A stretch of DNA of 61,436 bases, the filler included, from Sphacelaria rigidula (lineage: Eukaryota), in the NCBI GenBank assembly GCA_964200075.2. It is 7 parts of 7 records of this genome, joined end to end, with 100 filler letters (N's around TTAATTAATTAA, not from the genome) between each part and the next. Parts side by side here need not be neighbours in the genome. Positions count along the whole stretch, not along the records: positions 52,748 to 61,436 come from CAXNAA020010370.1; 6 more parts are not named here. One strand, given 5' to 3'. The translations under genes were made by a program, and so were the position numbers. Position 1 is the stretch's first letter; each line of letters begins with the position of its first letter. A model generated the notes under the pieces. That model saw only the letters and a program-made list of their open reading frames with translations. It was not told the DNA's origin and ran no database searches. This document shows positions 8,693 through 61,239 of the stretch, one piece after another.

Positions 8693-8792
8693 NNNNNNNN
8701 NNNNNNNNNNNNNNNNNNNNNNNNNNNNNNNNNNNNTTAATTAATTAANNNNNNNNNNNNNNNNNNNNNNNNNNNNNNNNNNNNNNNNNNNN
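8693..8792. other. Artificial contig linker (N44-TTAATTAATTAA-N44)
   Basis: 100-bp spacer with stop codons in all six frames; identical at six positions in the window. Confidence 0.97.
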
Positions 8793-11467: not shown

Positions 11468-11649
11468 TGTAATACGGGGGAGGACCGCGTGCTCGTTAGA
11501 TTGCGTCGGAGCCCTACGGTTGGGTTTCGGGTTAGCGTCAGGGGCGCGGTCCCTGCACGGACTGGCTGAAGGATCTTGATGAAAGTCGATCCGAGGGCGA
11601 TCAAATTCCTATGCGGCTCAAAAAGCACGCGGTCCTCCCACGCATTACA
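11468..11649. mobile_element. TGT...ACA telomeric-repeat MITE, degenerate copy 1
   Basis: TGTAATACGGGGGAGGACCGCGTGCT...AAGCACGCGGTCCTCCCACGCATTACA with a decayed GGGTT tract; no clear TSD. Confidence 0.8.
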
Positions 11650-13595: not shown

Positions 13596-13799
13596 TGTAA
13601 TGCGTGGGAGAACTACGTGCTTACGGGACTGCATCGGAGTTTCGACACCCATATGGTTAGGGCTAGGGTCAGTGTCGGGGTTAGGGTCAGGGGCGTGGTC
13701 CCTGTAGTGACTGGCCCGTTTGGTTTTTATAGCGTCGATCCTGGGGTGTTTTGACCTACGATGCAGTCCCCCAAGCACGCGGCTTTCCCATGCATTACA
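13596..13799. mobile_element. TGT...ACA telomeric-repeat MITE, degenerate copy 2
   Basis: TGTAATGCGTGGGAGAACTACGTGCTT...GGTTAGGGCTAGGGTCAG...GGGGTTAGGGTCAGGGG...AAGCACGCGGCTTTCCCATGCATTACA. Confidence 0.82.
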
Positions 13800-13807
13800 A
13801 TGAATAA

Positions 13808-14240
13808 CGGCGTTTTCGTGAGATTGAGAGTAGAGCGCTCATTGAGAGTGGCTTTGATCATTCGCTTGAATTTGGCCAATTTTACTCTGTGTGTGCTTTT
13901 ATTTGCCTCCATCGCTGGCGTATGCTTACAGCTACACGTCGATATCCTACTCGGGCATATTAAGGGCCTGAGTGGCAAAGCTACTACAGAAACCATATCG
14001 GGTGTCGTGGAGGAACATTTCGGAACTGATACGATTCATTCACTAATTGACCGCTTTTCACTTCCAGGCCGTGTCTGATCAAATTGTTCTTGTGTCGAAA
14101 ACGCGTGCGGTTGAGAAAGTGGATGCCGTGGACGTACCAGGTGAGAGCAAACGATTCCACCGTACCCTGTCGAGTCCAAGACAATTTGAGAAGGCACGGC
14201 CTCAATCGTATCCTCTGCTCTCAATCTCATGAAAACATTG
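13808..14240. mobile_element. Non-autonomous TIR element (CAGTGTTTTCGTGAGATTGAGAGTAGAG family) with a nested MITE
   Basis: Left end CGGCGTTTTCGTGAGATTGAGAGTAGAG, right end CTCTGCTCTCAATCTCATGAAAACATTG; internal homology to 18365-18656, 24791-25040 and 54603-55088. Confidence 0.8.
14067..14201. mobile_element. GGCC-ended MITE (PIF/Harbinger- or Zator-like) nested in the CAGTG-family element
   Basis: TIR GGCCGTGTCTGATCAAATTGT versus ACAATTTGAGAAGGCACGGCC; flanks CCA and TCA (3-bp TSD with one mismatch); absent from the other host copies. Confidence 0.65.
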
Positions 14241-17484: not shown

Positions 17485-17584
17485 NNNNNNNNNNNNNNNN
17501 NNNNNNNNNNNNNNNNNNNNNNNNNNNNTTAATTAATTAANNNNNNNNNNNNNNNNNNNNNNNNNNNNNNNNNNNNNNNNNNNN
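17485..17584. other. Artificial contig linker
   Basis: N44-TTAATTAATTAA-N44. Confidence 0.97.
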
Positions 17585-18364
17585 CACGACAGGGCGGTTT
17601 GTTTGTAAGACATCAGTGGCATATGTATCGCGGGCTGAGGGTTTGTCCCTCGTGATATACAGTGTTGACTTGATACTCGGAACAGTTGCGATACTTCATC
17701 GCTGCACTTGTCGAAACATTATTCGAGACTTGTCCTGTTACTGTTGTTAGCGGACTTTGCAGCCAAAAACGGATGAATGAACACGATCCTTGAGAATGTC
17801 TCGGTTTTCAACTAATGTCCTATCCAAGCATCTTCCTACGGAGATTAGGGAAGTATCACCAGTTAGCGCACCAGGATTCTCTAACGTCGCGACGAAGCGT
17901 TTTCGCATGAAACCCAGTGAAACATCAACAGGTTTGCCGGCAGGATTTTGCACCAATGTGCGAGGTAAGCGTTTTGTCCATTTATGATGCAGGCACGACC
18001 GGCCCCCCAAAGCCATGAAAAGCCTGCTCTCAAGCCTGCTCTCAATCGTATCGTACGTAGACTCTCAATCTCACCAAAACACTGTTTATTGCATTTGGTT
18101 TACGGGAAAATGTTGAAGTAATGCTACGATAAGGCAGCGGCGGTGGGGGGCGGGGGTAGTTTGGGCCACTGCATCCACGAAATTCCACCTCAAGTTGTCG
18201 TTGAAACCAGCAACGGTTGTTCGAAGGCACTTGTTACCGATAAAAAGCGCTCATTCATATTGCTTGACAGTGCTCTTACCCAAATACAAGCGCACCACAA
18301 GTGTGTTGAACGGTCTGACATACCCATGAGCCCTATTTTTTTCAACCCCTCCCGCTCCTATCAA

Positions 18365-18656
18365 CACTGTGTTCGTGAGATTGAGAGTAGAAGATACGAT
18401 TGAGAGTGAAAAGCCATCAATTGGTGAATGAATCGTTTCAGTTCCGAAATTCCCTTCCATGAGGTCCAATGTGCTTTATGTAGTAGCGTGCCACTGAGGT
18501 CCTTGATATCCCTGAGTAGGATATCGACGTGTAGTTGTAAGCACACGCCAGTGATGGAGGCAAAGACTTGCACACACGGAATGAAAAATTGGCTAAGTTC
18601 AAGACAATGATCAAGGCCACTCTTACCGTTCTACTCTCAATTTCACGAAAACGTTG
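18365..18656. mobile_element. CAGTG-family non-autonomous TIR element (~290 bp)
   Basis: CACTGTGTTCGTGAGATTGAGAGTAGAAG...TTCTACTCTCAATTTCACGAAAACGTTG; inverted homolog of 13808-14240. Confidence 0.8.
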
Positions 18657-22303: not shown

Positions 22304-25300
22304 GGTGGTGGTGGTGGTGGTGTTTTTTGTTGTTTTCGCTGCTCCCTTTCTTCCCTGTCTGAGGCCGTTGTTTCTGTCGTTTTCTGTTCTTTTCTTTCTG
22401 TTCTTTTCCTTTTTTTTATTATTATGTTCTATTTTTGCTGCTCCTGACCACGGGCTGGATTGTTGCAATCAGCTTATGTGAGATAATCAAGCAATCGATA
22501 AATAAATCTCAGAGAGAGATTCCACGATAACCGAAGGTGTGACTCAGCGGAATCATGTGAGTATTTTCCCGGTGTAAGGGTAATCGTGCGAGGTTGTTGC
22601 CCGATGCCGATATGATTATGTTTACGTGAAAATATCATATTGTGCTTTAGGCTCGAATATTGTCATACTAGGGTTGTGCCTGATCCGAAGATGGGCATGA
22701 AAGGCCTTGCCTTGCATGTGGAATGCCTCGGGAATAGTGACCCAATCATGGGAAATTACTCACAGAATGCTTGCATGGCGGCCTCTGGGCTGTAGCACCC
22801 GCCTCCGCCACCAAAGCACAGATACAGGTTCTCGCCGTAGTCGCTATCATCGGTGGAGCTCGCCAGCTGTCCACATTGATCGGGGCTGGCCAGCACCAGC
22901 GAGTGGGCCTGGAATGACAACAACGGGCGACGAGCAACTTATGCCCACGTGGAAGGGGGCCATGTCGACACGTCAAGAGAGGCCGACCTGAGAACCAGTG
23001 CCGTGTGATGGGTCGCGGTGCCGCGCGATGTTCACCAACACGCGGGTTTGGTGTGTACTATTCACGGGGGTGCACCACACCATGGCAACCGAAGATTGTA
23101 CCATTTCCCGTTTTCTGGAAATAGTGTTCACGCAGCTTTCTGTATGCTGGATACGCTCGGGATTCTGCCGCCTGTGGTACACTGAACACGAGACGCCGTA
23201 CTGCCCAGAAACTCGTGAAGAACGGCACACTGCACACAAAGTAACGGCCGCGTTCCATCGCCCTGATCAAGGTTGACCACCACGACGTAAAACCTCAAAC
23301 CGTATCCTGTCCGCTTTTTCAATGTTAATGCGATGTCAACTGTGGAGTATTGCCATCACGCGACAATACGGTCGTGCCACTGAACATCGATGTGTTTGAT
23401 TCAAGTACGACCCCGAATGGTTGAAGTACAATTGTGTGTAGACGTACTTGAGCGACGGCCTCCACGTCTGAGCTCCACACCATCGGATCCGCACCGTGCA
23501 TGCACCTGGTTTAAGGGGAGAAATACACGATGGCATGAGGCCGGAGCACGTCGGGAGCAAATCAGGGTGCGACGACAACAGGAAAGATATTCACAACAGA
23601 ATAGTCAGACCAAGCGACACTCGACCGGGAAAACAAGCCGACGGATTGCTTCGCACACGTTCATATAATCAAGCGGGCGATAGTAAATAGAGGCACGGTC
23701 GATGGAAGGAATTGCCGGTAGCGTAACTGAAACCCCAAAACATTGCGCGCCCCCCACGTGCTGGGCTATCATGGGAACATCTCCACCAAGCACGACTGTG
23801 CTCACAACAGCAGATTCGTTTTATGAACATAATGGGTAGTGCCCCCAAGACTATTGCCGAATCATTAATCCTGCCGCATTCAAAGGGTAGCTTTCTCAAA
23901 TTCTTTCTTCAACCACATCGAACTGATCCAGAGATGACAAGAGTATTGAAAAAAAAACTTCGACTAGGATAACATTTGACTGCAAGTCATTTGGGTGCAA
24001 TCCTCCAAGTACTCGGATTCTTTTTCAGTTCAAACTTCAGGTAAGTACTCCGGAATACTCGATACTTTCCATCAATCGACACTCCAGGTGCTCTGGAAAA
24101 CTCAGCAATCGCTCGTCAATACTCCAGGGACCCTGGAAAAATACCCCAAAAAGAGTACTTTCGGTATTGATACTTCAGGTATTCTGAAATGCTCAGCATT
24201 TTCAGCAGTTGATACTCCAAGTACTACTGTGGTATACTCAGTATGCTTGCCAGGCAATATTTCAATGTCTCCGGAATACTGATACGCTGAAAACCCGGAA
24301 AACCTGGGATATCGCTCTCTATCCTGAGCACTGCACTGTACTTCACCGTTTGCTGTTCTGAGGTTGTGCGGTATGTATGGTCATGTTTGTGAAATCAAAC
24401 CGGATGCCACCATTTATCATTTAACTTACTACTTGACTGGTGCACCTTTCATGTGTGTAATCACCACTACAACACTGGTTGTGAGAGACCACACGATGGA
24501 GTCAAGAAATATTCACACGACCAATTAATTGGTGTGATACAACGTACCGCGCAACGTTGACGCGCCGCCCCGGCTCAGCGTAAGTATTTCGAACTTTTGA
24601 GTAAAGTCAAAAATATGTGTATGAAACCAACAGAAACACATACTGCAAAACGACTTGCACCGCGTTGCAAGCTGATGTCTTATCATTACCCTATCCGCGG
24701 TGGTATTACATATGCTGCGTGTAGATTTTTTACCTGCGTGGTTCTTCCCCCCAGCGGTGTGTGATGAAGATTCTCGTTTACGGTGAAAAGCAGTGATTTG
24801 GTGAGATTGAGAGTTCAGCGTTGAGTTAGGGTGAGTGCTATTATTCGCCCTAACTTAGCCAATTTTTACAAACCTTAGTCAGGGATATTTTCAAAGGCTT
24901 CGTGGCAGTGGCAAGGTACTACTACAGGAAGTGTATCGGATCTCGTGAAGGGCCATTTCGGGACTGAAAGATTTCCTCCATGAATTGACCGCTTCTCACT
25001 CTCACTCGTAGCCCGGACTCTCAATCTCACGAAACCTTTTTCGAAACTACTCACAAATCGCGTAGTTTCGTCAGCGAACAGCGAAACATTTCACCACAGG
25101 AAGAGTCACAACCGACGTCCAGCTGCATCATCCCCGAAGCAAAGCGAATGCAACGCCATTGTTGTAGATTTTGAATTAACATTTACTCCCCCAAATCGAA
25201 TACCTGCTGCTACAAATGTGCTGTCCCTCGACTGAAAACATACGACTTTTTCCTCGAAAATCTCCAATGAGAGAACTTTGCAAATTGTGTTGAGAATCAG

Positions 25301-26276: not shown

Positions 26277-26376
26277 NNNNNNNNNNNNNNNNNNNNNNNN
26301 NNNNNNNNNNNNNNNNNNNNTTAATTAATTAANNNNNNNNNNNNNNNNNNNNNNNNNNNNNNNNNNNNNNNNNNNN
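26277..26376. other. Artificial contig linker
   Basis: N44-TTAATTAATTAA-N44. Confidence 0.97.
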
Positions 26377-31675: not shown

Positions 31676-32959
31676 TGCTGTTGCCCGTCAAAACTCGCAC
31701 ACCAGGAAAGGTGAGCCGGAGCCGGAGGTTGGAGCTATCTTCGTGACTTGCTGGTAGTGCCTTCAGGCAGGATTCATGCCTGTTACGGAACGGTACAAGT
31801 GTGCGCGGAAAGGTGGCGTTTCGATGGAGATGAGGACGAGGAGTGTGCAACTAAATTCACAAAATCCAGCAAAAGTGTAGTGAGGACAGAGGGGCCGCGA
31901 ATATGAAGGCACAGAAAATAACAGTGGACCCATACGTGAAAATTGTGCTAGCAACGCCTCGGGCTCGTTAAACCCACAACCGGCATCGAAGTACCTGTTG
32001 CAACAACACTGACCGATGGTGTCTGTGCTATTACTAGCGCTGAGATTGAAATTTGCATGGATTCGTCATGGATGGCAGCGAAGGACACCACGGATAAAGA
32101 AACAAACGCAGCAACGACGCAAAACACCGAGGTCATCACCGCAACTAGTAGTGGTGGAGGAACAGCACATGGCCCCCATCATGGGTAGGGCGAGAAATGA
32201 TTCTGAGCGGGTTACGATAGATATGCCGTCATGATGGCTTATGATTTTCCATGTAGGGCAGTTTTTGATTGACGAACAGGCGAGAAAAATCCCGTTGGCG
32301 AGGCGCACACAGTAGGGTACAGTCGAAATGTTAATGCCGGTTCGGTGGACCACGGGGCATGGCGTGGACGTCAAAAGCTCAATCGCAAGCAGCTTCAATG
32401 TAGAGAAACAGAAATGACTCAAGATGCACGGCTTTTGTACTATTCTCAATAATGCTACAGTTGTTGGTCTGCACGCAAGTAGGGGACATTCCATAATATG
32501 TTTACTGAAGGACCCAAACGCATATACGCATGAAGTGAGTACTGTTGTACAAACATGCCAATTAGGTCCATGAATCGAGTCATTCCGCTACGAATCTGAG
32601 GCTACTGCGTCGAGAGTTGCCGATCGGAGAGCTGCACCTTTAGCCAGAGGTGGACGCCCTTGAAAAACAACGGTTTAAAAAGGTTGTTGGAAACCCTCGT
32701 GGGCGTTTACCGGTTCCGTTTTCGTTTTTTCGAAATGATGTAATCGGTAAGGGAGGCGTTAGTCCGGCGGTCTAAAGGGTTTGGCCAAGTTGGCAGCGAC
32801 GGAGGGGTCTTTCGTGAAAAAGAGTGAAGTACTGGTGTTTGAGTAATAATGTCATACAGATTCATGTAAGACTGCGCGTAAATAGGCAAGCAAGTGAGCG
32901 TGCATTTCTGTTTATTCTGATATAGAGACTCCCTCTACTGCTCTCTTCCCTTCTCCCCG

Positions 32960-35067: not shown

Positions 35068-35167
35068 NNNNNNNNNNNNNNNNNNNNNNNNNNNNNNNNN
35101 NNNNNNNNNNNTTAATTAATTAANNNNNNNNNNNNNNNNNNNNNNNNNNNNNNNNNNNNNNNNNNNN
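35068..35167. other. Artificial contig linker
   Basis: N44-TTAATTAATTAA-N44. Confidence 0.97.
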
Positions 35168-35895: not shown

Positions 35896-38800
35896 TACAT
35901 GTGGAATTTTGCCAAGCACACTGGGACGATAAAAATTGATGAATAGAAAAGCAGGTTGCGCCCAGTATAATTTTTAGGATTTGCCGTCTATCTGTGCATT
36001 GCGAGAAACAAAATGCTGCTGGACGTGTTGTTCATGCCCCTGGTCTCCTGTTGCAGCAAGATCCTGTAGGCCCTTACAGTTGGATAGTGATCATTACGAA
36101 ACGATCATTGGATGACCATACCATGTGCACATTCAGTGGATGACGACCCATGTCAGTTTTGCGTAACAGCACATTGGTACAGCAGTGCCGATCAATGTCA
36201 TTACATTATATTGAATTGGCACTGATTTTTTCATCCATTTCACAGTCCTGTTCGGGATCCTTCCTCCGATCCACTTTCTCTCGTTCCCGTGGGTCATGAG
36301 CTCCGTCTCGAAAGGGATGCGTGGTCAATGGTCATACGACTAAGGCAAACAACAAATGAGTACGCCCCCCCCCCGTTGGTAATAATGTACATCCGCATCT
36401 ATCAGCGCATACCCGCATGTCTCTACTGACAACTTTGAAGCAAGACCGCCAAGAATACAAACGCGCTGAATCGTGTGTAGCACCTTGCCATGTGTTGATT
36501 GATACCCCGTCTAGTCTACCAACACTGAAGTCAAGTAATGTAGACTAGAAGTCAAGTAATTATCGAACTTCGCTCAAGCTTCAGTAGTCGAGACACTCGA
36601 CCCTGAAAATAAGTGGTGAGTACTAAAATGCCCCCCGCCCGGACACCGTCTGTTTCCCTCCCTGTTTTCGCTTCTATGAGCGTTTTTAGCCTACGCTGTT
36701 TTTCTTTCACCTTACCTACCCCTGTTTCTGTTTTTTGGCGCACTTTCAACTCCTCTGGACGAGTCCGTGGACTCAAACGGTCACCCCATCTATCTCTCCC
36801 CCAGATTGAAGAACCCTTGTGAATCCTTCTCTTCCCTCCCCCGCGCAGACGCTTTATAGTTCATAGATCCCATGGTTGCGGAAGAACATGAAAACAGTTG
36901 ACAATGCAACCATATGAGATTTGCTTACAGAGTAGACACCCCCGCGATGGTCGGGTCAGTTTCGTTCAAAAGTAACAAGCTGTGGGTGACTCGTGTCCAA
37001 TATACAGTTGTGATAATGTAGAAACATCGCCAGTTAAAGTCTGAAACTTTCATCCCTCGAGTCCTCAAACTTGTTGTTCTTAGTTCCCCAGTGCTGCACG
37101 TTACGTTTGTGTATGCCCCTCATCATGGCGACGTCATATACCATGACATGCAAAATTGCAAAACCTTGCTCTGTACTGTCTGTACTGCACAATACACGAT
37201 GCATGATATCGACGACCCTGTCAGCAAGTACCCCTCTTTCCGAGCTCGCGCCCCGAGCACGGTCTGTTGTACAGTTTGCAGTCTCTTATCACTTGTAAAA
37301 TAAGCGCGAAGGGCTATGTCGTGCTCTCTCTCCAGTCACTGTACCGCCAGCTGAGTCAACAGCCAAATCTTCGGTCTGTGACCGGACATATTATTTTCGT
37401 TCATCGCATAAAGGCGGCTTATCCTGAGAGTCATGTGGGTGTTTGCTCATGAATCCCCGCGTTTCGAAGATAATATTGGGTTCTGACGGTGAACATAGCA
37501 CTGCTGGGCCATGTGTATATCATGGTGCACGTATATGCTGTTGATTGTGCCGTTTATTGCATCGTCCGTGCGATGATGCAAGAACCGTCGACAGCATACC
37601 CAAAACAAATGTATGGATCCGGAAATGGGGCATCGTGTGTTGAAGTGAAGTTGCATGTGGCCCAGCTCCCGGCTGGGGGATATATGCGGGTACCAAAGGT
37701 AGCAAATCACTGTAAATGCAGTACAACGCCATGTGTAGGTTGCGTTATTTGCTACCGCACAGAGATTTTTCGATTGTTTGATTGGTTGATGCATTGATCG
37801 TTGCACTTGAACTGATCCCCCAAGAATCCAGCGGCGGTCGCATGATAGTAAGCATGTTTCGCTATCGCTGGGTGTTGATGAGTGTAAGCCTCCATACAGT
37901 GTGTGTATTTCGCTATTGCTGGGTGCTGATGATGGTGGGTGTACGCTTGGACGGAACTACTCAGTGTGGTTATACTACTGCCTCCCTGAAGTTACTTAGG
38001 TAAGGAGAGCAGCTCAATGGAAACAGAACAAGCGTGGGGTGCCTCCCTCGCTGCACATGCGGGTGATAGTGAGGATTTTGACGTCCAAACCTTTCAGGGC
38101 GCCGTCATCCTAAGTCACACGCAGTCATGTGGCCGCGCGTTGTCACCCTGGAGTACTTCGTTCATCACCCACTTGTAAAATCACCCTCGTGTGATCATTT
38201 TCCATACCGTAGCCATACAGTACCCACTACTGTCCCTCCGTATACAAACCTGAAGTGTGACAGGTGCAAGCTGTGCGTTTAGTCGTGATGCGCATGTAGT
38301 CATGGTTGTGTCGCCATCGAGAAACCGCGTGTATTTTTGTATCCTTGCCTGTAGGAAAAGAAGGCGTATTGTCATGAGAGTGATTCCAACTTGGGGCGGA
38401 AATGGTGGAAACTATCTTCCGTATCCCGACACCTTGAAGATCGTGGCTGGGTTCGTTCGAAACCTGTGGTCAGAGTATTGGAAATACTCGATTTATTTTA
38501 TTTTTACATATTTGGAATATTTTCGGATTTCGTTACGTCTCTCAACTTCGGCAACAAAAACGTTTGGGTTTTTTGGGAGTCTCTGATCACAGCTTTCGAA
38601 TAAGGTGACGCACGATATGTCGGGTGACGGATACACGAAGTATTGAATACGACATTGCACCATTTTCGGGGTCACGGATACTGTTGGAATTCCACAAATA
38701 TGTGAGCGCAGGGAGACTCCCCGCGCTAGGCCGTGGGACCAACCGACTAGTAGCCCATGCTGTGTCGAAGGGCTGTGGGGATTACGGTATGAACCTTCAC

Positions 38801-43857: not shown

Positions 43858-43957
43858 NNNNNNNNNNNNNNNNNNNNNNNNNNNNNNNNNNNNNNNNNNN
43901 NTTAATTAATTAANNNNNNNNNNNNNNNNNNNNNNNNNNNNNNNNNNNNNNNNNNNN
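43858..43957. other. Artificial contig linker
   Basis: N44-TTAATTAATTAA-N44. Confidence 0.97.
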
Positions 43958-44217: not shown

Positions 44218-47200
44218 GTATCGTTAACACAGTCTCCGGATACCAACCCGGCACAGTAGACAGCGTTGGGCACACAGGCAGTACACCTCCGTGCCCGCTG
44301 GTCATTCACAAGTGCTGCACATATCGGTCGCTATTAGAGCACTATTGAGTTGAGACAGTTGAGGGTTGTACTACTACTGTACTGTTGTTGCACTGCCTGT
44401 AGACAGTTTTGTATACTTTCGGTAGGAAGTGTTCTGCACTGTGCCACTCAGACTGTCTGTAGTACTGTACAACTGTTGTCTGTAGTACAAGTGTGTACAT
44501 GCCTATGTGTGTCCGCTTGCATACTTTGAGAAATTACAGTAGTTCTCGATAAAGGTTCACCACACGAGTCACCCTCGCTGCGTGAAGGCGAGAGGGGGAA
44601 CAGAGAGACACCTGTCGACCTGGCTTAAAATGACGTGGAAGGGCTGAAGTCGGCCACCCATGCAGCCGCTACGAGGATCTCGAAAAAATGGCCACCCAAC
44701 GGTGGTGTAACTGCGCGAGCTAACGCAAGCTTCTCGTTGGGTTGCCATTTCGTCAGGTCCTCATAGCAGCTGCTTGAGCGGCCGACTCCCGCCCTTTCGC
44801 ATCATCATAAGCCAGGTCGACTGGTGTCTCGGTTCCCCCGTTCGCCTCCAAGTGTTCCTCGTACTTTTGGGTCACTCTTGTGAACGAGCTGCCATCACCA
44901 GTGCTGTCGCGGGCGTTCACGACATCCGCCACCGCCTCACTTATGATATTTGTCCTACGGCTGTGTTCTGTAACCTTGGTCGTCGTGAGGCAGGGTGTCT
45001 AGTTCCGTTTCATAGCCCTGAGTTTGGCACCAACGCTTTGGGGTGTCTAGCAACTCGTTTTTTATTTTTTATTTGAAAATTACACCTGAGTTGCTGGGCA
45101 TGTCTCTTCTCAGGGTTCAGTTTTTGGGGTTTACCTAGGGGAATTCGTCATGTCCTGGCCTTGAATCCCAACTTTCTCAATAATCCCTGAGTTTTTCCTC
45201 ATCCTTGAGTTCTGATTTGTGTTTCCGAACCTCTCTATTGGAAAACCGCACGGCGACAACAGGAGTCGCGCGCGCAAGTAATGAAAAATCGCCCCAGATG
45301 AAGACGTTCACAAAATTCCCCAAAGTAGTGAATATTGCGCCTGACATAAATCATATCGGCTGTTGATTATGTTGTTCGATGACCGAACCGTGCCCACTGG
45401 TGTGTAACTGTACCTGCTCTGCTGCCCTCAATCCCTGAGGCTTTTGCTTTTTGTCATCATGTAATTTTAATTTTATCGCCCCTGCTCTTTACTTTCCTCT
45501 CATTTTCCTTTTTTCCGGTTAGGGTTAGGCATTAACTTCTGTGCTTTTCTTTTCTTGACCTTGTTTCTAATCGTCAATGGTTGATTGATTGATTGGTTGA
45601 CTGATTCTCGCACTTGAATAGTATTATTTTCTTACATATCACTGACATGTCGTTCTGGTCGACCTTCTGTTTTATCAGTTCCTTCTTTTGTTCAGCGAGT
45701 GTTTCAGTTTTTTTTTTTGGGGTACGTCCATTATGAGACCACGGCTAGATCCCTGGGGGGGTAAGTTAAAGTGCGACAATCAATCAATGCTTCAAATAGA
45801 GCAACTTCATGCTGGAATATCACCGGAACTAAACACGCCACACCACCGTCGTGCGCGCTTGTTACAGGGAGTGGCGCAGGTATTCACGTTGGAAAGGTGT
45901 AAAGATTTACCCGGTGTCCATGGGACGAAGGGCGCCGCAAGATGGCAAGGCATGACATTTGACGGGGGGAAGTGCGGCCGCAGGGACGGGGCAGATGAAG
46001 TTATGCGGTAGTAATGCCGGTCACCCCGTCATTCTGCCGCGCACATCCCAACGTCCGGACCCGGCGCCGAGAGTACTTCGCGGCCGTGGTGAATGCGCCA
46101 CGGCCCGCCCATCATGTCTGATGCCAAGCTAATTGTTGGGTGATAAGGTGGTGGCATTTGCGACGACGAAGACAGTTTGTGTGGAAGTGTGGAAGCGCCC
46201 AAATTTGCGGGCCGTGCGGTGCGACGGCATTTAGGCCGGGGCCGGGGCGGGTAGAGGCGAGGGTTTTGATGTGGCGCGGTGGCGCCGCCGTGCAGGGGTG
46301 TCGTTTGATCGTTCTCGCGGTGCTACACGGTAACACTCATTTCAGGTTGTATTAGTCACCGAGCGGTACGAAGCATGAAATTATTGAGGTGCGTTTTCGC
46401 GGCACACGGCGGCTGGGATATCATCGCGAGGGACGGGGAGGCACGCAGAACCTGTCGAGATTTGCGATATGTATGCTCGTGCGGTGTGCACGACTTGCTA
46501 GCGCGAAGCGATCGCGCGCGCGCCGACGACCCCCTGTTTTTGTCTCTTTTTTTTGTGTTGTAGTTGATTTGATACCACTTTCATTCGTTTTTTTCTGTTT
46601 TTGTATCGAATCTGCGTGGTTTGTTTGTAGCACGATTATTTTTTTAATTTCTTAAGCCTTATGTTTGGAATCTTTGCCTATTACCACGGGAAGCGTCCGC
46701 GTATTATGCCAAGTAGAAAGCGATGCGGTGATGTCGGAGCGGTTTCAACTTTGTAGACAACAACTACAACGACTACGACGACAAGTTAGGCGAATGGACC
46801 GTGCTTTACAGACAATCCACATCCCCATGAGTGCACAAACACCCATCGAAATGCTGATCGCCACAAATATTGGGGGGTCATGATAACGCGAGAGGGCAAA
46901 ATCCCTCCACAGGAGCAATGATACGGCAGGAGTGCACTTTTGACGCAAAATCTTGTCTGGTTCAGGGGGTCCGAACGACTCTAGATGCACAATAGTGTGG
47001 GTCAGGGCATCCTCGTTTGCAATTTCTTTCGGGATATTCTTCGTACTTTGAAATTACAAACCTGGCGCACTCTCACATATTTCATCAGTCGTGTTTTGGA
47101 TTAGATGAAGGCAAGAAAACAATTTTTGAACTCAGACAATAAAAGTACGCACCTACCGTAGTATCACCCCAGGCTTTCACAGCTGGTGCCTCGCGTGCGT

Positions 47201-51460: not shown

Positions 51461-52012
51461 TACCTCGACGAGATTATTTACGTATCAGTTCACGGCAGTT
51501 AGGACGAGCACCAAATGCAAATGATGACCACGATAATATACCACCGTCTTCACGCGGGCTTGATGATGGCCTCGGGTGTACAAATTCAACGATTTTCTAC
51601 AAACTAAAAGGTGGGGTTTTGAAAACTGGTTTCACTGAAATGTCTCTCAGAAAAGTAGTCCCGAATGACTTCTCTCAGAGATTGTCAGTCTATGAGAAGC
51701 GGCCTCACAAAAATCATCATTTCTCAATATAGGTTCTGAACAGATTTGGCAAGGCCACGCACAACGTGCACAGCTGATGAGCAGCTACGCATATGCCACA
51801 CATGTCGAAATTATTGCCGCCCAACAATTGTACGATCTTCCATTCTTGTTACTCAAGTTGGTCAACCTTATCCGGAGCCACCATCCGATGTTTTGTACAG
51901 CCACGATCACTACTATACATGGAGATACAGCAGCCTATCTTGACCATATATTTTCGACTTGCGTCACCCCCGGGAGGCCCGTACCAACCTCCCGAAGGGG
52001 AACCTTGTATCA

Positions 52013-52494
52013 CATGTTATTATGAACCCAAATTCGGAATACCTTTGGAAGCGAAAGAGTTCGTTTCCTCAAAGTACGTCGACATGGTTGAAATGACTCT
52101 CCTTATCCGGGGGAAAGTGTCCGCTTTGGGTCCGTTCAAGCGCTCGAACATAGTGTCGAACGGCATTATGAATCTTTTCTGACACTGGCATCTGCAAATC
52201 AATACAGTACCATCACGAATCGACAATTTAACGTTCTTCTTAGAAACCAACGGGCATCAAAGTGTTTGCAGTTTGGAATACGGACATTTTCATAGACCAG
52301 AAACTCTGTGTTCCCCCGTAGCCGTTAAAGACCGGTCTCAAAAACTATGTTGTCCTTCTTTCAAACTTGGCGGACGGACGGGGAAGCCGCAATCCCTCGG
52401 GTAAGGAGTGTCATTCCAACAATGTCGACGTACTTTGAGAAAGCGAACTCTTTCGTTTCCAAAGGTATTCCGAATTTGGGTTCATAATAACATG
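52013..52494. mobile_element. MITE with ~95-bp TIRs (possible TA TSD)
   Basis: CATGTTATTATGAACCCAAATTCGGAATACCTTTGGAA...GTACGTCGACAT at the left end and its reverse complement at ~52397-52494; flanks CA and TA. Confidence 0.85.
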
Positions 52495-52647
52495 TAATAT
52501 TATTACCGAGTGTGACCTCTATAGGCAGACGTCTGTAGACGGGAGGCAGTCAGTGGAGTTCATCAACGAAAGCTCCAGATCGCAGCTGACGCACCCCTCT
52601 GCACGATGCTAGCAACAGTTAGGTCACCACCATAGGTATCTTTTTTC

Positions 52648-52747
52648 NNNNNNNNNNNNNNNNNNNNNNNNNNNNNNNNNNNNNNNNNNNNTTAATTAAT
52701 TAANNNNNNNNNNNNNNNNNNNNNNNNNNNNNNNNNNNNNNNNNNNN
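52648..52747. other. Artificial contig linker
   Basis: N44-TTAATTAATTAA-N44. Confidence 0.97.
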
Positions 52748-52859: not shown

Positions 52860-54303
52860 GCTATCGTAGAAAGTGTCGTCGGAGGATGCTGGGTTTCGAT
52901 ACATTTTGGTAATCATGGATGATTCGAACAACTTTGTGGCTCTGGAACCAGTAGCAGTGCGTACTGCTAAATCGACCGCTGAATCTTTGCTGAATTGGTG
53001 CAAAACGTTGGGGGTGCCGCGTGTGTGGGTGAGTGATACCGTCACGCATTTCAAGAATGCGATCTTGGCCCGATTGCGAGAGGCTTTGCGCGTTGATCAC
53101 CCGTCTGCGGTAGCGTGTTCTTCGTGGTCTAACAGTACGTGCGAACGCATGGTCAAGGAAGAAATTCGTGCTCCTCGCTCAATTCTTCTCGAGCAGCGTA
53201 GAGCGGTTTCAGAGTGGGTGGACGTGGTGCCGGCGGTGCAATGGGCGCTTAATGCAGTGTATCGTCGCCGTTACGGTAGTACGCCGTACCACGTGATGCT
53301 TGGTCGTGCTCCTCGGATGTCTTTTTCGGTGCTGGCGTCTTCGTCGGCGGGGGAATGGAAGTGTGATGTCCTCTACGATGTTCAAATTAATCGTGCATTG
53401 CAAGACGTCTTGGACTTGCAAGAACGTTTCCACGTTCAAGTGCAGGAACGTGTTGCCGCTGAACGTGCGCGCAGACGTGAGGGGGCCTCGTCGGGGCTGG
53501 AATTGCCGAATTTTGAGGTAGGCGACTATGTATTGTATGCACGCGTGCGTCGTCCGGGTGTTCCGCCCAAGTTGATGGCGACTTGGACGGGTCCATGGAG
53601 AGTGGTTGTTGCTCATCACCCGCACGTGTTCGAGATTCAAAACATTGTTTCGGGTCGTGTTCAGACCGCCCATGTACCTCGTTTTCGTTTTTTCGCAGAC
53701 CCGTAGCTTACTGTCACGGCTGACGTTAAGGACGTAGTCCAGCATGCTTTCAATCAGGGGCTATTTCAAATGGCTGGTATTGTCCGGGTGGCAGAAGCAA
53801 ATGATCGTGCGTTGATCGTGTTGGTCGACTGGGTTGGTCTCAAAGTTGAGGAGCGTACGTGGGAGCCTTTCAAGGACATTTTTGAGGCCGCTCCGGACTT
53901 TCTTACGAAGGAGTTGCGTAAATTGTGCGTGACTCGTGCCGTTGCTACTCGCATCACGCGTGAGTTTGGTATTCAATTGTGACTTACTCATCGTTTTGGC
54001 GTTTTCTGTGTGTCAAGCTTGTTGATCGATTTTCGTCCACACGCTTTGGGGGTGCTGTGACGAGAATACGTCGTTGCATTGAGTTGGTAGGGACGATATG
54101 GATAATGACCGTTGGTAGCGATGATCTGGATAATGACCGGGGATTCTAGGTTGATACTCTGGCGTGTCTAGGTCGGTGCCTTGGAAGGGCACTCATGAAT
54201 AATGAGAATGTTGTAAAGGCTGACAGCTGAAACTGAGGCCAGTAAGACCGGGGGGCCCCTCAACCGTAGTGATCCAGCAATGCTTCCACTGGCTGGCGTC
54301 ATA
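52860..54303 (+). mobile_element. Ty3/Gypsy (chromodomain-containing) retrotransposon 3' part: integrase, GPY/F motif, chromodomain, PPT-like tract and 3' LTR
   Basis: Integrase YILVIMDD...WVSD...CER; WTGPW; chromodomain LVDWVG...RTWEP in the same frame after one in-frame TAG (53704-53706); stop at 53982; G-run at 54048-54052; LTR TGTGACG (54056)...CGTCATA (54303). Confidence 0.92.
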
Positions 54304-54602: not shown

Positions 54603-55088
54603 CAGTGTTTTGGTGAGAGATTGAGAGTAGAGGACACGATTAAGAGCGGTCAAATAATTAGTGAAAGAATTTCAGTCCCGAAATGCCCCTCCACGAGGCC
54701 CGATGTGATGCGTGAGAGGACCGCGTGCTCAAGAGGACCGCATCGTAGCTCGAAACACCTCAAGGTCAACGGCTTTCAAAACTAATCGGGCCAGTCCTCG
54801 CAGGGACCACGCCCCGGAATCTAACCCCAACCCTGGCCGTAACCCTAACCCTAACCCCAGGAATGTTCAAATTCCGATGCGGTCCTCTAAGCACGCGGTC
54901 CTCTCACGCATTACACCCGATATGCTTCCTGTAATAGCCTGCCACTGAAGCCCTTGATATCCCTCAGTAAGATATCGACGTGTGGCTGTAAGCATACGCC
55001 AGCTTGACAGGCACAAAGCACATCAATTTACAGCGGATGATAGCACCCACTCTCAATCGACGCTCACTCAGAATCACAAAAATATCGT
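54603..55088. mobile_element. CAGTG-family TIR element interrupted by a telomeric-repeat MITE
   Basis: Left end CAGTGTTTTGGTGAGAGATTGAGAGTAGAG; collinear with 18365-18656 once 54704-54920 is removed. Confidence 0.8.
54704..54915. mobile_element. TGT...ACA telomeric-repeat MITE, copy 3 (TSD CCCGA)
   Basis: CCCGA|TGTGATGCGTGAGAGGACCGCG...AACCCTAACCCTAACCCC...GCGGTCCTCTCACGCATTACA|CCCGA. Confidence 0.92.
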
Positions 55089-56514
55089 AATATATTACTA
55101 GACTACTATTTCGCAATTACTCGTGCTGGCATCTTCTTTACCATTGTTCCCTTTTGTACATTTTGCGCCAAGTATATGCCCAATACCTGCTAGTCTTCCC
55201 GGTACACCACAGGACATCCCCAGCTGACACCTTTGTTTCGTCATCCGTCATCACACCACACCACCGCCATGTTACCAGAACACCGGCAAAAACCACTGTT
55301 TTGAGACATGAGCGAACACTAACATAACTCCTTTTACTGCTATACGATGGATACTAAAGCTTCTCGGATTCTTGTTTATACCCCTAGCATACTATTATGC
55401 TGAGACGAGCACAGAAAAAGATACGAAAGGCGAGACGCGAGATGGCGCAAGAATATTCCAACGACACTACGAGTACTACTTGATGGCGCACAAATTGGCA
55501 GCACAAAGGATCCTTTAGAAGAAACCTTACGCGTACAACAAAAGACCAAGCAAGCGACGTGAGACCCGCATGGATGAACGTCACGTTTCAGTCACAAATA
55601 TCACCCGCTGTGTTTTCTGTTCCCGTCAACACGACCGCGCGGAACCCATACACGTAAAGCGGCCTTTCCTCACATCTATGCATCAAGTTCTATGAAAGCT
55701 CCACGGAAGAAGGTAACATTCGCACGAGAGCGCCGCCACCGGACGACACGATACCATCAGCAAAATATCAGTTGAAGAATACCCTGTAAAGGAAATAAAG
55801 GAGCAAAACCCACAACACATAACCAACACGATCACCGCCCCCCTCGACCAGCTACTTTTCCACGCACACACAGGGACTGAGCGTTAGAACGCTGGTCTTC
55901 ACCCTTCGGCGCTGTGAGTACCATCATGCGCGCGTGCGATACCATGACCACGGACAAAAACGACACGACAACACAGTAGTATCACAACAAGAAAGCGATG
56001 GTCATGCGTGTACACGCCACAGCAGAGCACTTGCCCACGAGCAAGCTCGAAAGCTTTACACTATATTATATATGCAACAGCATTATTATGAATATGCAAC
56101 GAGCGACCGCACTCTTCTATCACGTCACCGTCCTCTTCCCCACTCTGTCCACATTGAACCCCCGCATGTCATTCACACCAACACGCACTCACGGCAGAGA
56201 ACAAAGCGTAGTCGACACCATCCTGTGTACATTCATCTCACACCCTGCATAATTATGACAAATAGATTACGTTGTCGAGAAAGTGTACCGCGTGCAGTAT
56301 ATGGAATATATATTGTCCATTATTGCCATAGACGCAATAGTAGATACTGTACGCAGTGCACTCGTGGACAAAATGTAGCGTATTGTCATGTTATCCAGGG
56401 TGTGATACATTTCTCCGACAAAAATGTAAATAAGGAAGATACTGAGATACATGCGGCAGCACGGTTGCCGTGCCCAACCGCAAAATATGATGAAACTATC
56501 ACGCAATACACCGT

Positions 56515-56737
56515 TGTAATGCGTGAGAGGACCGCGTGCTTAGAGGACCGCGCCGTAGTTCAAAATACCTCAGGATCGACGTTTTTCAAAACCAATCGGG
56601 TCAGTCCCTGCAGGTACCACTCCCCTGACCCTAACCCCAACACTAACCCTAACCCTAACCCTAACCCTAACCCTAATCATAGGGATGTCCAAATTCCGAT
56701 GCGGTCCTCTAAGCACGCGGTCCCCTCACGCGTTACA
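56515..56737. mobile_element. TGT...ACA telomeric-repeat MITE, copy 4 (TSD CCGT)
   Basis: CCGT|TGTAATGCGTGAGAGGACCGCGTGCTTAGAGGACCGC...(CCCTAA)5...CACGCGTTACA|CCGT. Confidence 0.93.
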
Positions 56738-57132
56738 CCGTCACTCGAAGCATGCAGCACAACATCACACCACAGCACTTGGATCAATAAATGGGCACAA
56801 CAGAATTCACAACACGCTTTCACACATCATAGTACGCCCCAAACCACGTCGTGAGATGTCTACACGTCATCACACTACGTCGCCGTCATTTGTCGTGACG
56901 ATTCTTCGCGCACAACACAGGGCAAGCAAGCACATTCTTTCCAGACTCACACTCACCATCCCAACACCAAAAGTGCACAAAATATTGTAAAATAAATATG
57001 TCGCGTCGGCAAGGATAAAACACACCACCACCAGTAACATGCACAAAATCTTGATATATATGTAATGTATGATTTCCCAACTCGCGACAAACAGTAAGCA
57101 GCACAAAGGACAGGCACAGCAGTCCCTACTGT

Positions 57133-60100
57133 CTACTGGCCAACGGGGATGCACTGAGCGAAGTAGTCGCCCCTTCCGACGCACTCGGCACCGTCATCGC
57201 AGCAGGTGGGCCCATCCCAGTCCGTCCCACCACATTTTTCCCAAACCGCGGAGCACCCGCCATCGACATCCTCACTGAAAGGCTCGGCACGCTCTTCGTC
57301 GGTCTGAGTCTCGGTCCTCTTCCCGGACTTTTCAGGCTTCCTCTTCGTGCTCCGCTCAGTCTCAGGCGACGACATAGTGCTCAGTTCCGAATCGGTCGAT
57401 GTCGATTCGCCCTCTATCGACCCGCCCTCCATCGACTCGCTTTCCATTGACCCGCTCTCCATCGACTCGCCCTCCATCGACTCGCCCTCCATCGACTCGT
57501 AAGAAGGAGGATACTTGTCAGTTCCCGACGAGTAGGAAGGCGAGTCATCCATCTCCAATGGTTCAGCTGTGGGCTCGGGCATAGGCTCGGTTGCTTCCGG
57601 CTCCGGCTCGGGGGCTGTGGGTGCAGGGGCGAGCTCGGGCTTCGGTGAGGGTCCGGTGGATCCGCCTGGCACGGGAGGATGGGGAAATGGGGCGCAAGGA
57701 CACGGGAAGGACGGGGGAGGGGGGGCGTACTCATTTGTTGCTTGCCTCGATCGTTTGGCATTGAGGGAGGACGACGGGTCAGTAGCTCGCCGCTGAAGAG
57801 GCTACTTCACGCCGGTCGAAGAATGTGTATTTTTGATGCGCAAGCTGTCGCTGACAGAAAACAAGCGACAAGACGCTCCGGAACGATAAGAGAAAAACAT
57901 GGATGAAAAAAACGCACCAGAGGTGATGGAGACATCGGCGCAGTTCCAGAACTCCTCAGGGTAACTGTCGCCAACACCGCACATCCCGGGGTCCAGAGTG
58001 ATCCAGTCCTCCTTGTTGGGTGCGCACTCACTTGGCCACGAGGGAGGGTTGAACCCCTCGTACCCAGGGTGGTAGCACGAGTTGCCAGTGTCTACAAGAT
58101 GTCACGAGAGGTAGGAGGGGCGTGGCGACGACAGAGGGGTGACAGGTTTGTGGAAAACAACACACAAAAAAGAAAAGAAGACACGAATGTGACGCGTAGT
58201 AAAATAGCTGTGCCCCAGGCCACGCGGACGTGAAAACCTGAGCCCCGAACCGCGAATCAACTCACTTCACATGTCTGTTCCTGTAATGCGTGAGAGGACC
58301 GCGTGCTTGGAGGACCGCATCGGAATTTGAACATCCTTATGGTTAGGGTTAGGGTTAGGGTTGGGGTTGGGGTTATGATCAGGGGCGTAGTATTTTTTTC
58401 AACTACGGCGCAGTCCTCCAAGCACGCGGTCCTCCCACGCATTACAGTGCCGATAAAGTTGTGAAGCAGCTTACAGCCATCTACAGACAAACGAGTAGAG
58501 TAGTACAGGCTGCAACCGCTCAGTACCACCCTGACTCCACATCGAGCGCTCATGTAGCCGTACACCACGTCTGATTTCCCCGATTAGCACAACTCACAGT
58601 AAACCATCTGGATGGTGCATCTCTCGCACGTCAGACCCTTGGGCAGCTGGTAGCGCGCGGTAACTACATCCCCGGTGGACGTTCCCTCGGGCTTCGACTG
58701 GTCTGTCTCTGCGGCCCGGCACGGTGGGTCCACGTAGTAGCGGCCCGGGTGGTCCGGATCTATGGGGCTAGCGTCCCCGTCGTCATCGGCCCGGTCGAGC
58801 GGGTACTTGTTGAAGCAGCTCTGCGTGACAGGACCATCGGGCCCGCCCGGGAGGTCATCGGCGTTACAGACGAAGAACTCCAGATGGCCCTGTTGTGCGA
58901 CCCGGTCGGGGAGCCGGAAGGGGTAAGGGAAACGGGGAAGAGGGGGGGAGGGGGGTACTCATGATCGTGTACGTCGTAATCATGTGACCAATGACCTCGT
59001 ATTCCAACAAAGCCGGGACAAAGCACGCCGGGTTTCGTCGGACCAGGCTCGCTATCAATCACGAAGCGCCAAGTATCGTGATGTATTCGGCGAGTCGAAT
59101 GAAGGATGAGCTGCATCCTGCCAAGATTTCTCGGCCCGCAGCGTACTGGATCGTTGTGCATGTGCATGGCAGCCTCGAATGAGTTGCTTCATTTTCTGGT
59201 ATCGCGACTTCCAGATACAGTAAGGGGTTACACATTGCGTCATGGGTGTCACACGGGGGGTGGGGGGGGGGGGCGTACTCATTGGTTGCTGGCCTCTGTG
59301 GTTTGACCATTGACCACGCATCCCCTTCGAGACGGAGCATTTATAGTTGGGGGGGGGGGATGCCATGCGCTGAGAGGTGCTGAGAAAATTGGTATCAAAG
59401 TCTCATCGATGTGGTCCACCTTGACCAACAGAGACCGTCGGCGCTATGCTTTATATGTAAGTCCACAGGACCCTGTCGGTTAGAAAGGGGCTGCGGCACA
59501 GGGCTATCGAAAACCCCATCAGAGTTAGAGTTGAAAAAACAAATGCTTTAGTATCATTCGGCAGAGCGGGGGCGGGGTGTAATGTGTGAGAGGACCGCGT
59601 GCTTAGAGGACCGCGCCGTAGTTCAAAATACCTCAGAATCACGTTTTTCAAAACCATTTGGGTCAGTCCCTGCAGGTACCACGTCCCTGACCCCAACCCC
59701 AACCCCAACCCTAACCAGAGGGGTGTTCAAATTCCGATGCGGTCCTCCAAGCACTCGTTCCTCTCACGCATTACACGGGGGGCGAGGGGAAAACTTCGTC
59801 AGCTCAGGGTGGCACCTGTAGTGCATGAGAGGACCGCGTGCTTAGAGGACCGTGCTGTAGTTCAAAACACCTGAGGATCGACGTTTTTCAAAACCAATCG
59901 CGCCAGTCCCTTCAGGCACCACGCCCCTGACCCTAACCCCAACACTAACCCCAACCCTAACCATAGAGGTGTTCAAATTCCGATGCGGTCCTTCAAGCAC
60001 ACGGTCCTCTCATGCATTGCAGCACCAACGAATCGCTTGCCCGTGGTGTACCGTGAGGAAACAACTTTACGGTTGGTTGAGAGCGCAACAAGGCCTATAC

Positions 60101-61001
60101 GTACCTGACTGTAGTGTAGCGACTGGAGGAAGTCAAAATCGTCACGCGAGGCCGACAGACATGATAAAACCTGAGACTAGGTCCTAAACCTGGATACCCT
60201 GACCGATGCCAGCTGTATTTCAGTGCCACGCAATATCAATCGGTCGCAACTGGCCGTGTCAATCACTCGCCGCCACACGTATGTGCCCTAGTTGGTACAT
60301 GGATCATCTTGGAGCTGATTAGGGCGGGGTTCGCTGCTCGCACGGGAAGATGTGATCCCTTTCCGAGTAGAACCTTATTTATGTCATTAAACTTTGACGA
60401 AGAGTCACTCAAGTCCTGTTTACATCCTTATCGGGAATTGATTTGACGACGAAATGATGAGTTTTCACACCGAAACAAAAATGCCAAAGCCCCTGAACCA
60501 TCAGAGCATCTATTCTATTCTTGAAAAACACGCAACGGGGAGGGTCTACGCGGGGAGAAGCGATTGAGAACAGGGATATTTGAGCTCTTATCCACGCAGC
60601 TATATATGTGAACGAACAACCCCTGGAAATTCGCACACTCAGGGAAAGTGGCGCGCGGGGGTTGGGGATGCCAAGGGTTCCCCTGTAACCGAGGCAATGT
60701 GAGTACGGTGTAGCACGGTAGCAGTACTTGTAGAAACTTCAAGGTGTACATGGATTATCGGGGGGCAGTGAGTGAGTGACCCAGAGGTGAACGTGTTGTG
60801 TGTCAGCAAAGGTGTAATGCTTGCTCCTCAAAGCACTCTCATGCCGCAAGTAGAGGGCGGAGACTCAAATCAATCAAGGCTCACCCAGTGGTACGTGGAC
60901 ATGACGACCTTCATCTCCACCACGGAGCCCTCCGCCAGGGTCTCGAGGACGGGGTATACGCTGTTGTCCTGCGCGTACTTGTTATCGCCTTCGGGCTGAG
61001 T
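57133..61001 (-). CDS. AA15-like lytic polysaccharide monooxygenase + acidic P/E/S linker + C-terminal CBM1; 4 exons, 5'-partial
   Basis: Phase-consistent exons: 61001-60885 (...ETLAEGSVVEMKVVMSTYHW), 58889-58598 (GHLEFFVC...TQSCFNKYPL...YQLPKGLTCERCTIQMVY), 58091-57918 (TGNSC...PEEFWNCADVSIT), 57665-57133 (linker; CSAVWEKCGGTDWDGPTCCDDGAECVGRGDYFAQC = CBM1; stop). HxGxxEFxxC, LPxGLTCxxC and ExFxNCAD are AA15-type motifs. Confidence 0.88.
58282..58446. mobile_element. TGT...ACA telomeric-repeat MITE, copy 5 (intronic, internally deleted)
   Basis: GTTCC|TGTAATGCGTGAGAGGACCGC...(TTAGGG)3(TTGGGG)2...CGCATTACA|GTGCC. Confidence 0.92.
59578..59775. mobile_element. TGT...ACA telomeric-repeat MITE, copy 6 (TSD CGGGG, intronic)
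   Basis: CGGGG|TGTAATGTGTGAGAGGACCGC...CTCACGCATTACA|CGGGG. Confidence 0.93.
59817..60021. mobile_element. TGT...ACA telomeric-repeat MITE, copy 7 (TSD GCACC, intronic)
   Basis: GCACC|TGTAGTGCATGAGAGGACCGC...CTCATGCATTGCA|GCACC. Confidence 0.92.
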
Positions 61002-61028
61002 CTGCGTTGCGTGTATTCAGGTCGCGCG

Positions 61029-61239
61029 TGTAATGCGTGAGAGGACCGCGTGCTTAGAGGACCGCATCGGACTTCGAATACCCCTATGGTTAGGGTTAGG
61101 GTTAGTATTAGTGTTTGGGTTGGGGTCAGGGGCGTGGTACCTGCAGGGCCTGGCCCGATTGGTTTTGGAAACCGTCGATCCTGAGGTGTTTCGAGCCTCG
61201 GCGCGGTCCTCTAAGCACGCGTTCCTCTCACGCATTACA
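61029..61239. mobile_element. TGT...ACA telomeric-repeat MITE, copy 8 (TSD GCGCG, intronic)
   Basis: GCGCG|TGTAATGCGTGAGAGGACCGCGTGCTTAGAGGACCGC...(TTAGGG)n...CTCACGCATTACA|GCGCG. Confidence 0.93.

Follow-up and report, generated by a model that had tools for sequence, protein, structure and literature searches.

The window analyzed here, 61,436 bases of DNA from Sphacelaria rigidula, contains eight copies of a short interspersed element. The element belongs to a genuine and abundant family of MITEs (miniature inverted-repeat transposable elements) with integrase-style ends and an unusual internal microsatellite of the telomere type. We read it as a high-copy family that is moved in trans, most likely by an enzyme of the integrase type, and that carries the telomere-like tract as a passenger; for this reading as a whole we estimate a probability of roughly 0.55. 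That the element is a MITE, that is, a non-autonomous class II element with terminal inverted repeats (TIRs), is near certain.

The window is composed of seven pieces (8692, 8692, 8692, 8691, 8690, 8690 and 8689 bp, in descending order of size) that are separated by 100-nt spacers of the form N44-TTAATTAATTAA-N44 (8693-8792, 17485-17584, 26277-26376, 35068-35167, 43858-43957 and 52648-52747). Adjacent pieces are not necessarily neighbors in the genome, and the seven have the appearance of individual contigs from a fragmented assembly. The public data consist of Logan contigs from four sequencing runs, one labelled as an algae metagenome and three of one organism. Their unique parts diverge from the window by 0-8%, and the four runs may represent a relative of the source strain, not the source strain itself.

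Termini, target duplications and empty sites

When the window is searched with the copies by blastn, exactly eight intervals match, and solo ends or fragments are absent. These are the same eight copies, with the same starts and the same length range of 165-223 bp, that a preliminary description of this DNA had listed, and the seventh of them ends at 60021 (Table 1). Piece 2 carries two of the copies and piece 7 the other six; the remaining pieces have none. A scan for the 37-nt TIR that allowed up to three mismatches gives ten matches in the window and none in 100 shuffled versions of it.

The two arms of a copy are identical at 28 to 36 of the first 37 nucleotides, but at only 6 to 12 of the following 23. 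This collapse of identity beyond nucleotide 37 sets the length of the TIR at 37 bp. The termini read TGTAA...TTACA, with TGTAA present in 13 of the 16 arms, and TGTGA and TGTAG, both of which conform to TGTNR, in one arm each. The sole arm that does not begin with TGT is the right arm of the copy at 59817, which begins with TGCAA. The motif GAGGACCGC occurs at TIR positions 13 and 29, that is, 16 bp apart, in five of the eight left arms; in the copy at 54704 a one-base insertion places the second motif at position 30. The preliminary description had proposed both the 37-bp TIR with a doubled motif and the TGT..ACA ends, and these features hold, the latter in 15 of the 16 arms.

The pentamers that flank the element match perfectly in four of the eight copies (CCCGA, CGGGG, GCACC and GCGCG), whereas random positions in the window with the same spacing give a perfect match with a frequency of 0.0014. 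A fifth copy has GTTCC and GTGCC, which agree at four of five positions, the copy at 56515 has a duplication of only 4 bp (CCGT), and the flanks of the two oldest copies agree at three and at none of the five positions. In these target site duplications (TSDs), 24 of 29 bases are G or C (binomial p = 2.7e-4 against the 50% GC of the window; n = 8 copies for all TSD statistics). GC-rich duplications of 4-5 bp, as first noted in the preliminary description, are present in six copies and decayed in two.

Evidence for insertion into a formerly intact sequence comes from the copy at 54704, which sits inside another interspersed repeat with CCCGA on both sides of its TGT...ACA unit. Three paralogues of this host repeat elsewhere in the window read uninterrupted across the insertion point and have one pentamer each. 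In addition, 22 contigs of run X5 pass from 54704 straight to the right-hand flank, with one CCCGA at this empty site. Empty sites, which the preliminary description had named as a check, thus occur both among the paralogues in the window and in public contigs that lack the insert. Contigs with a loose end exactly at the terminus 54915 number 36-95 per run in all four runs, and those that end exactly at the terminus 56515 number 62-75 in three runs. The flanking sequences at these loose ends agree at only 0.32-0.36, which indicates that they stem from many different loci. A joint from 56251 to 56747 is present in all four runs. This joint might reflect the absence of the copy at 56515 from the relative, but it falls short of an exact empty site. 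The repeat that hosts the copy at 54704 spans 54612-54703 and 54916-55003 and has high depth in the public runs; its paralogues on other pieces (13811-14062, 18405-18653 and 24906-24993) are 79-84% identical to it.

The family is abundant beyond the window. In run X1 the summed contig depth is about 34,000-308,000 in bins that cover the element and about 70-870 in unique bins, and in each of the four runs the depth over the element exceeds that of the unique flanks by a factor of about 100 to 1000. Summed contig depth is not copy number, and read only from this depth the element would have hundreds to thousands of copies. Six of the eight copies diverge by 3.8-12% from the eight-copy consensus and the other two by 17% and 27%. 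This spread indicates several waves of activity in a family that was active over a long period. The elements have no coding capacity: in a Pfam scan of the 148 stop-to-stop open reading frames (ORFs) of at least 95 aa in the window, no family was assigned to any ORF that overlaps an element. The four features by which MITEs are recognized, namely short length without coding capacity, TIRs, TSDs with corresponding empty sites, and high copy number, are all present.

Table 1. Positions in the window of the MITE copies, parts of the copy closest to the consensus, empty paralogous sites and the gene that surrounds several copies.
Feature	Position	Strand	Remarks
MITE copy 1	11468..11649	-	182 bp; oldest; 27% from eight-copy consensus; TSD decayed, CCTCG/CCTTT (3/5); TIR 28/37
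MITE copy 2	13596..13799	-	204 bp; old; 17% from consensus; TSD gone (0/5); TIR 30/37
MITE copy 3	54704..54915	+	212 bp; within another interspersed repeat; TSD CCCGA
MITE copy 4	56515..56737	+	223 bp; nearest to consensus (3.8%); 4-bp TSD CCGT; TIR 35/37
MITE copy 5	58282..58446	-	165 bp; about 46 internal alignment columns missing; TSD GTTCC/GTGCC
MITE copy 6	59578..59775	+	198 bp; TSD CGGGG
MITE copy 7	59817..60021	+	205 bp; TSD GCACC
MITE copy 8	61029..61239	-	211 bp; TSD GCGCG
Left 37-bp TIR of copy 4 (reference)	56515..56551	+	TGTAA terminus; GAGGACCGC at 13 and 29
Right 37-bp TIR of copy 4 (reference)	56701..56737	-	2 mismatches to the 37-mer
Hexamer tract of copy 4	56623..56676	+	CCCTGA-CCCTAA-CCCCAA-CACTAA-(CCCTAA)5, read from the sequence
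Paralogous empty site	18340..18560	+	single TCCAA at the target position
Paralogous empty site	13905..14120	-	single CCCGA
Paralogous empty site	24890..25010	-	single TCCGA
LPMO_10 + CBM_1 gene, 5'-partial	57136..61004	-	exons 61004-60867, 58895-58599, 58089-57916, 57666-57136

Candidate enzymes for the mobilization of the family

Ends of the form TGT..ACA together with TSDs of 4-5 bp are described as a hallmark of integrase-related elements, and the ends of Ginger transposons follow the pattern TGTNR (PMC2836005; PMC10045372). The element resembles Ginger1 and the Ginger2/TDD group, which includes TDD-4 and TDD-5 of Dictyostelium, in its TGTNR termini, in the presence of long TIRs and in the length of its TSDs, which is 5 bp for five copies and 4 bp for a sixth (PMC2836005). 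According to these sources, Ginger1 duplicates 4 bp at GC-rich CCGG or CCGT sites, Ginger2 duplicates 4 bp at AT-rich RTATAY sites, and TDD-4 and TDD-5 duplicate 5 bp (PMC2836005; PMC10045372). Ginger1 prefers GC-rich targets (PMC2836005), and one copy of the element has CCGT. Given the TGTNR ends and the duplications of 4-5 bp, a Ginger/TDD-type enzyme appears to be the most likely partner, and we would put about even odds on a DDE transposase of the retroviral-integrase type, of the Ginger/TDD kind.

Under such a mechanism, the transposase would come in trans from an autonomous element at another site of the genome. The two GAGGACCGC boxes in each arm would be the putative binding sites of this enzyme. 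Insertion duplicates 5 bp, and once 4 bp, of a GC-rich target.

Several results weigh against this assignment. Only one of the six TSDs is CCGT, none is CCGG and none is AT-rich, so that the varied GC-rich targets, mostly of 5 bp, are unlike both the AT-rich sites of Ginger2 and the strict 4 bp of Ginger1. The TIR, at 37 bp, is slightly shorter than the published ranges of 40-270 bp for Ginger1 and 50-180 bp (PMC2836005). The Pfam scan detected no transposase domain among the 148 ORFs of the window, and the only ORF with an rve domain, located about 1 kb upstream of the cluster of elements, is part of a Ty3/gypsy pol gene. Scans for the TIR gave no matches in viral contigs, none in contigs of prokaryotic genomes, and two in metagenome contigs, which are chance matches of 19-21 nt in bacterial contigs with 72% GC. 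Across the window and these three contig collections, which did not include a whole genome of the host, an autonomous partner was not found. Furthermore, the main text of a study of transposable elements in Ectocarpus never mentions Ginger (PMC12477816). The Ginger-like character proposed in the preliminary description is thus upheld with respect to a non-autonomous TIR element with the appropriate ends and TSD length, but not with respect to the targets, which fit neither Ginger1 nor Ginger2, or to an integrase-type transposase, which was not found.

The rve ORF at 52870-53703 was considered as a Ginger transposase and rejected. Its relatives, which are 84% identical and named from Ectocarpus, are polyproteins of 911-1661 aa that contain RVT_1, RNase H and rve domains, and this identifies the ORF as a fragment of a Ty3/gypsy pol gene. 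The 5' part of the ORF is cut off by the boundary of the piece and not by biology. The 3' part of the pol gene extends over 52870-53982 on the plus strand, with an integrase core, a GPW/GPY-like motif and then, in another frame, a chromodomain; the match to the Chromo domain that follows the rve ORF (E = 2.3e-4) is below the cut-off.

A MITE of this structure could also depend on an enzyme outside the integrase group, be it from a DDE lineage not yet described or classified, or from a known one that makes atypical duplications. We regard this as possible, although the smaller chance. Other superfamilies of DNA transposons have TSDs of TA, 3, 4, 6-7 or 8 bp. No transposase has been linked to the element, its GC-rich 5-bp target matches neither Ginger group (PMC2836005), and orphan non-autonomous families are numerous in the Ectocarpus library, which lists 51 families as 'DNA/Unknown' in addition to Dada, Harbinger, KDZ, Mariner-Tc1, MuDR, PiggyBac, Sola-1, Sola-2, hAT and EnSpm (PMC12477816). 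However, the combination of TGT..ACA ends with 4-5-bp TSDs is described as typical of integrase-related elements, and eight Ectocarpus DNA families in the same library (KDZ, MuDR and DNA-N orphans) have TSDs of 2(?) bp, TTAA, 8 or 9 bp, with the exception of DNA5-N1 (PMC12477816).

Mobilization by a RAG1-like transposase, which would make the element a MITE of the Transib type, is unlikely. Transib elements have 5-bp TSDs, GC-rich targets and TIRs of about 38 bp, whose positions 1-3 are an invariant CAC and which carry an A-rich nonamer near positions 30-38 (PMC1131882). The 5-bp GC-rich TSDs and the 37-bp TIR of the element agree with this description, and its positions 4-7 (AATG) are those of the Transib heptamer CACAATG. 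However, instead of the CAC that reportedly does not vary in any Transib family (PMC1131882), 15 of the 16 arms have TGT, and positions 29-37, where the A-rich nonamer would lie, are occupied by GAGGACCGC. Transib, too, goes unmentioned in the main text of the Ectocarpus study (PMC12477816).

Still less credible is a scheme in which no dedicated kind of transposase exists and the element relies on the integrase of Ty3/gypsy or copia retrotransposons, its TGT..ACA ends mimicking those of a long terminal repeat (LTR). Brown algae are rich in LTR elements that have TGT ends and TSDs of 4-5 bp according to the supplement of the Ectocarpus study, one such element adjoins the cluster of copies, and no autonomous Ginger is curated in Ectocarpus (PMC12477816). 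However, the copies contain no direct LTR-like repeats, and no primer-binding site or polypurine tract was seen when the copies were read, a feature for which no search was made. The 37-bp TIR with its two internal boxes looks like the site of a dedicated transposase, and no route is known by which a chromosomal TIR element would be freed as blunt linear DNA for an integrase. Finally, a solo LTR or another retroelement remnant, the case that the preliminary description had set against its own proposal, has next to no credibility despite the TG..CA ends, the 5-bp TSDs and the nearby gypsy fragment, as the two ends form a 37-bp inverted repeat, the copies measure 165-223 bp, and blastn within the window reveals neither direct pairs that flank an internal region nor a longer relative; the interpretation as a DNA element stands.

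The telomere-like tract, the surrounding gene and the predicted hairpin

The internal tract consists of CCCTAA-like hexamers; its reading in the preliminary description is correct for 56623-56676 and, as stated there, the tract varies between copies. Homologous tracts align in register and at a fixed position in all eight copies and are degenerate in the two oldest, whereas the number and the sequence of the units vary. The elements hold 18 hexamers. The 59,299 bases outside of them contain 14 single hexamers and no tandem CCCTAA or TTAGGG. TTAGGG is reported as the telomere unit of Ectocarpus (bioRxiv 10.1101/2024.05.11.593484), in agreement with the telomere-type character that the preliminary description ascribed to the hexamer. 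The description of these tracts as prone to form G-quadruplexes would apply to a part of the family: the canonical motif, (G3+N1-7)x4, is found in three of the eight copies but not in the other five.

We take the CCCTAA-like tract for an internal microsatellite of ancestral origin and, in all probability, a passenger, since nothing but its persistence argues for a function. It would lengthen and shorten by replication slippage. The alternative that the tract is a functional module, which recruits Myb proteins that bind telomere repeats, forms G-quadruplexes or serves as a seed for telomere healing, would explain its retention. Its ancestral presence at the same position in all eight copies and the absence of tandem units outside the elements are consistent with such a role, and telomere-like motifs in subtelomeric satellites of Ectocarpus have been proposed as seeds (bioRxiv 10.1101/2024.05.11.593484). 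We nevertheless consider a function doubtful, as the units and their sequence differ freely among copies and decay in old ones, the canonical quadruplex motif is retained in the minority of copies given above, and the copies show no preferred orientation relative to the surrounding gene. A bolder version, in which an uncharacterised brown-algal Ginger/TDD-like lineage with 5-bp GC-rich targets has MITEs that spread thousands of (TTAGGG)n arrays into introns, where these bind proteins, form G-quadruplexes or serve as seeds for the healing of chromosomes instead of being inert microsatellites, seems to us quite improbable.

The surrounding gene was delimited by a tblastn search with P0013, a protein of 372 aa that is named 'partial [Sphacelaria rigidula]' and contains the domains LPMO_10 (PF03067) and CBM_1 (PF00734). 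It matches four exons on the minus strand with 91-100% identity per exon. The copies at 59578 and 59817 lie in intron 1 of this LPMO gene and the copy at 58282 in intron 2. The copy at 61029 lies upstream of the first exon present on piece 7, at a distance of about 20-25 bp; the N-terminal 78-124 residues of homologous proteins are not encoded on this piece, and we infer from their absence that this copy, too, is intronic and close to a 3' splice site. The insertion into genes noted in the preliminary description thus extends to four copies in introns of a single LPMO_10-CBM_1 gene, the fourth by inference, with two copies in each orientation relative to the gene. Downstream of the stop codon, at a distance of about 400 bp, follows the copy at 56515. 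The linker of the encoded protein includes SMEGE-like repeats, encoded by six 15-nt tandem units (57393-57512).

The RNA predicted for the copy at 56515 folds with -112.3 kcal/mol (z = -8.84), and none of 200 shuffled sequences is as stable. Intronic copies, once transcribed, would fold as long hairpins, and it is possible, judging by this model, that they are processed to small RNAs. Copies of the element also match the microRNA (miRNA) families MIR8643 (51 bits against a cut-off of 135), MIR5638 and MIR1437 in Rfam. These scores, 40-51 bits against cut-offs of 135-168, are all below the threshold, and the match to MIR8643, a family that, to judge by the titles and abstracts of the papers listed for it, occurs in plant studies only, is lost when the whole window is searched. 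We reject homology to these families and consider the matches as recognizing the hairpin structure only.

Other repeats in the window and relation to described elements

A second interspersed repeat is more abundant than the MITE. It consists of a poly-G run followed by CGTACTCAT(T/G)... and about 80 further nucleotides, and it is found at 57714-57757, 58940-58965, 59262-59352 and, on the minus strand, 36300-36374. In run X1 its depth sums to as much as 840,000, and a large number of contigs connect 57747 with 59301. Two of the seven pieces of the window terminate in poly-C, and this repeat may be the reason that contigs break at poly-G/C.

Two inverted repeats may represent other foldback or MITE-like elements: one has 107-nt arms that are 92% identical (52008-52114 and 52393-52499), the other 76-nt arms that are 82% identical (44605-44680 and 44755-44830). 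A near-perfect hairpin of about 60-80 nt at 939-1017 on the minus strand gives weak matches to several unrelated miRNA families (E 0.01-0.3) and probably represents no more than a palindrome. At 7631-8419 and 5270-5900 there are tandem arrays that repeat roughly every 130 bp, with 77-87% identity between units. Among the coding sequences, an open frame of 413 aa at 30449-31687 on the minus strand encodes six cysteine-rich motifs of the EsV-1-7 family (PF19114, E = 4e-84), which is characteristic of brown algae. The Pfam scan also detected WSC and CBM_1 domains among the ORFs of the window. These features, the gypsy relatives from Ectocarpus and the match to P0013 identify the host as a brown alga.

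Judged by its description, the closest described counterpart of the element is DNA5-N1_Ec32 from Ectocarpus sp. 7, a family with a length of 502 bp, TGTTG-CAACA ends, a 9-bp imperfect TIR and a 5-bp TSD that its curators annotated as 'possible Ginger?' (PMC12477816). Both are brown-algal and non-autonomous, with TGTNR-type ends, 5-bp TSDs and no autonomous partner. They differ, in a comparison made by description only, in the length of 502 bp, in the short imperfect TIR and in the telomere-like tract, none being noted for DNA5-N1_Ec32. MITEs that carry internal microsatellites or yield hairpin precursors of small RNAs, such as those in pineapple (PMC8449440) and Made1/mir-548 in human (PMC1784062), appear to resemble the element as short TIR elements in which a simple repeat lies inside and a long hairpin forms, but the microsatellite of the element, unlike theirs, is a telomere-type hexamer. 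In a text search of the literature, none of the papers listed for the TIR strings concerns this element, algae or transposons, and none of those listed mentions Ginger1 or Ginger2 together with the names of brown algae. As to whether the element is undescribed, which the preliminary description could not confirm, the literature searched lacks its TIR sequence, but a comparable orphan, DNA5-N1_Ec32, has already been curated.

If the partner enzyme of the family is integrase-like, then the family and DNA5-N1_Ec32 together would place DNA transposons of the Ginger type in brown algae, for which the curated Ectocarpus library, in the parts searched, lists no autonomous element of this type (PMC12477816). 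For practical work on brown-algal genomes, the abundance and intronic position of the family, one copy of which lies about 20 bp from a 3' splice site, have consequences in gene annotation, repeat masking and assembly, and its many interstitial telomere-like tracts may be mistaken for telomeric or subtelomeric signal.

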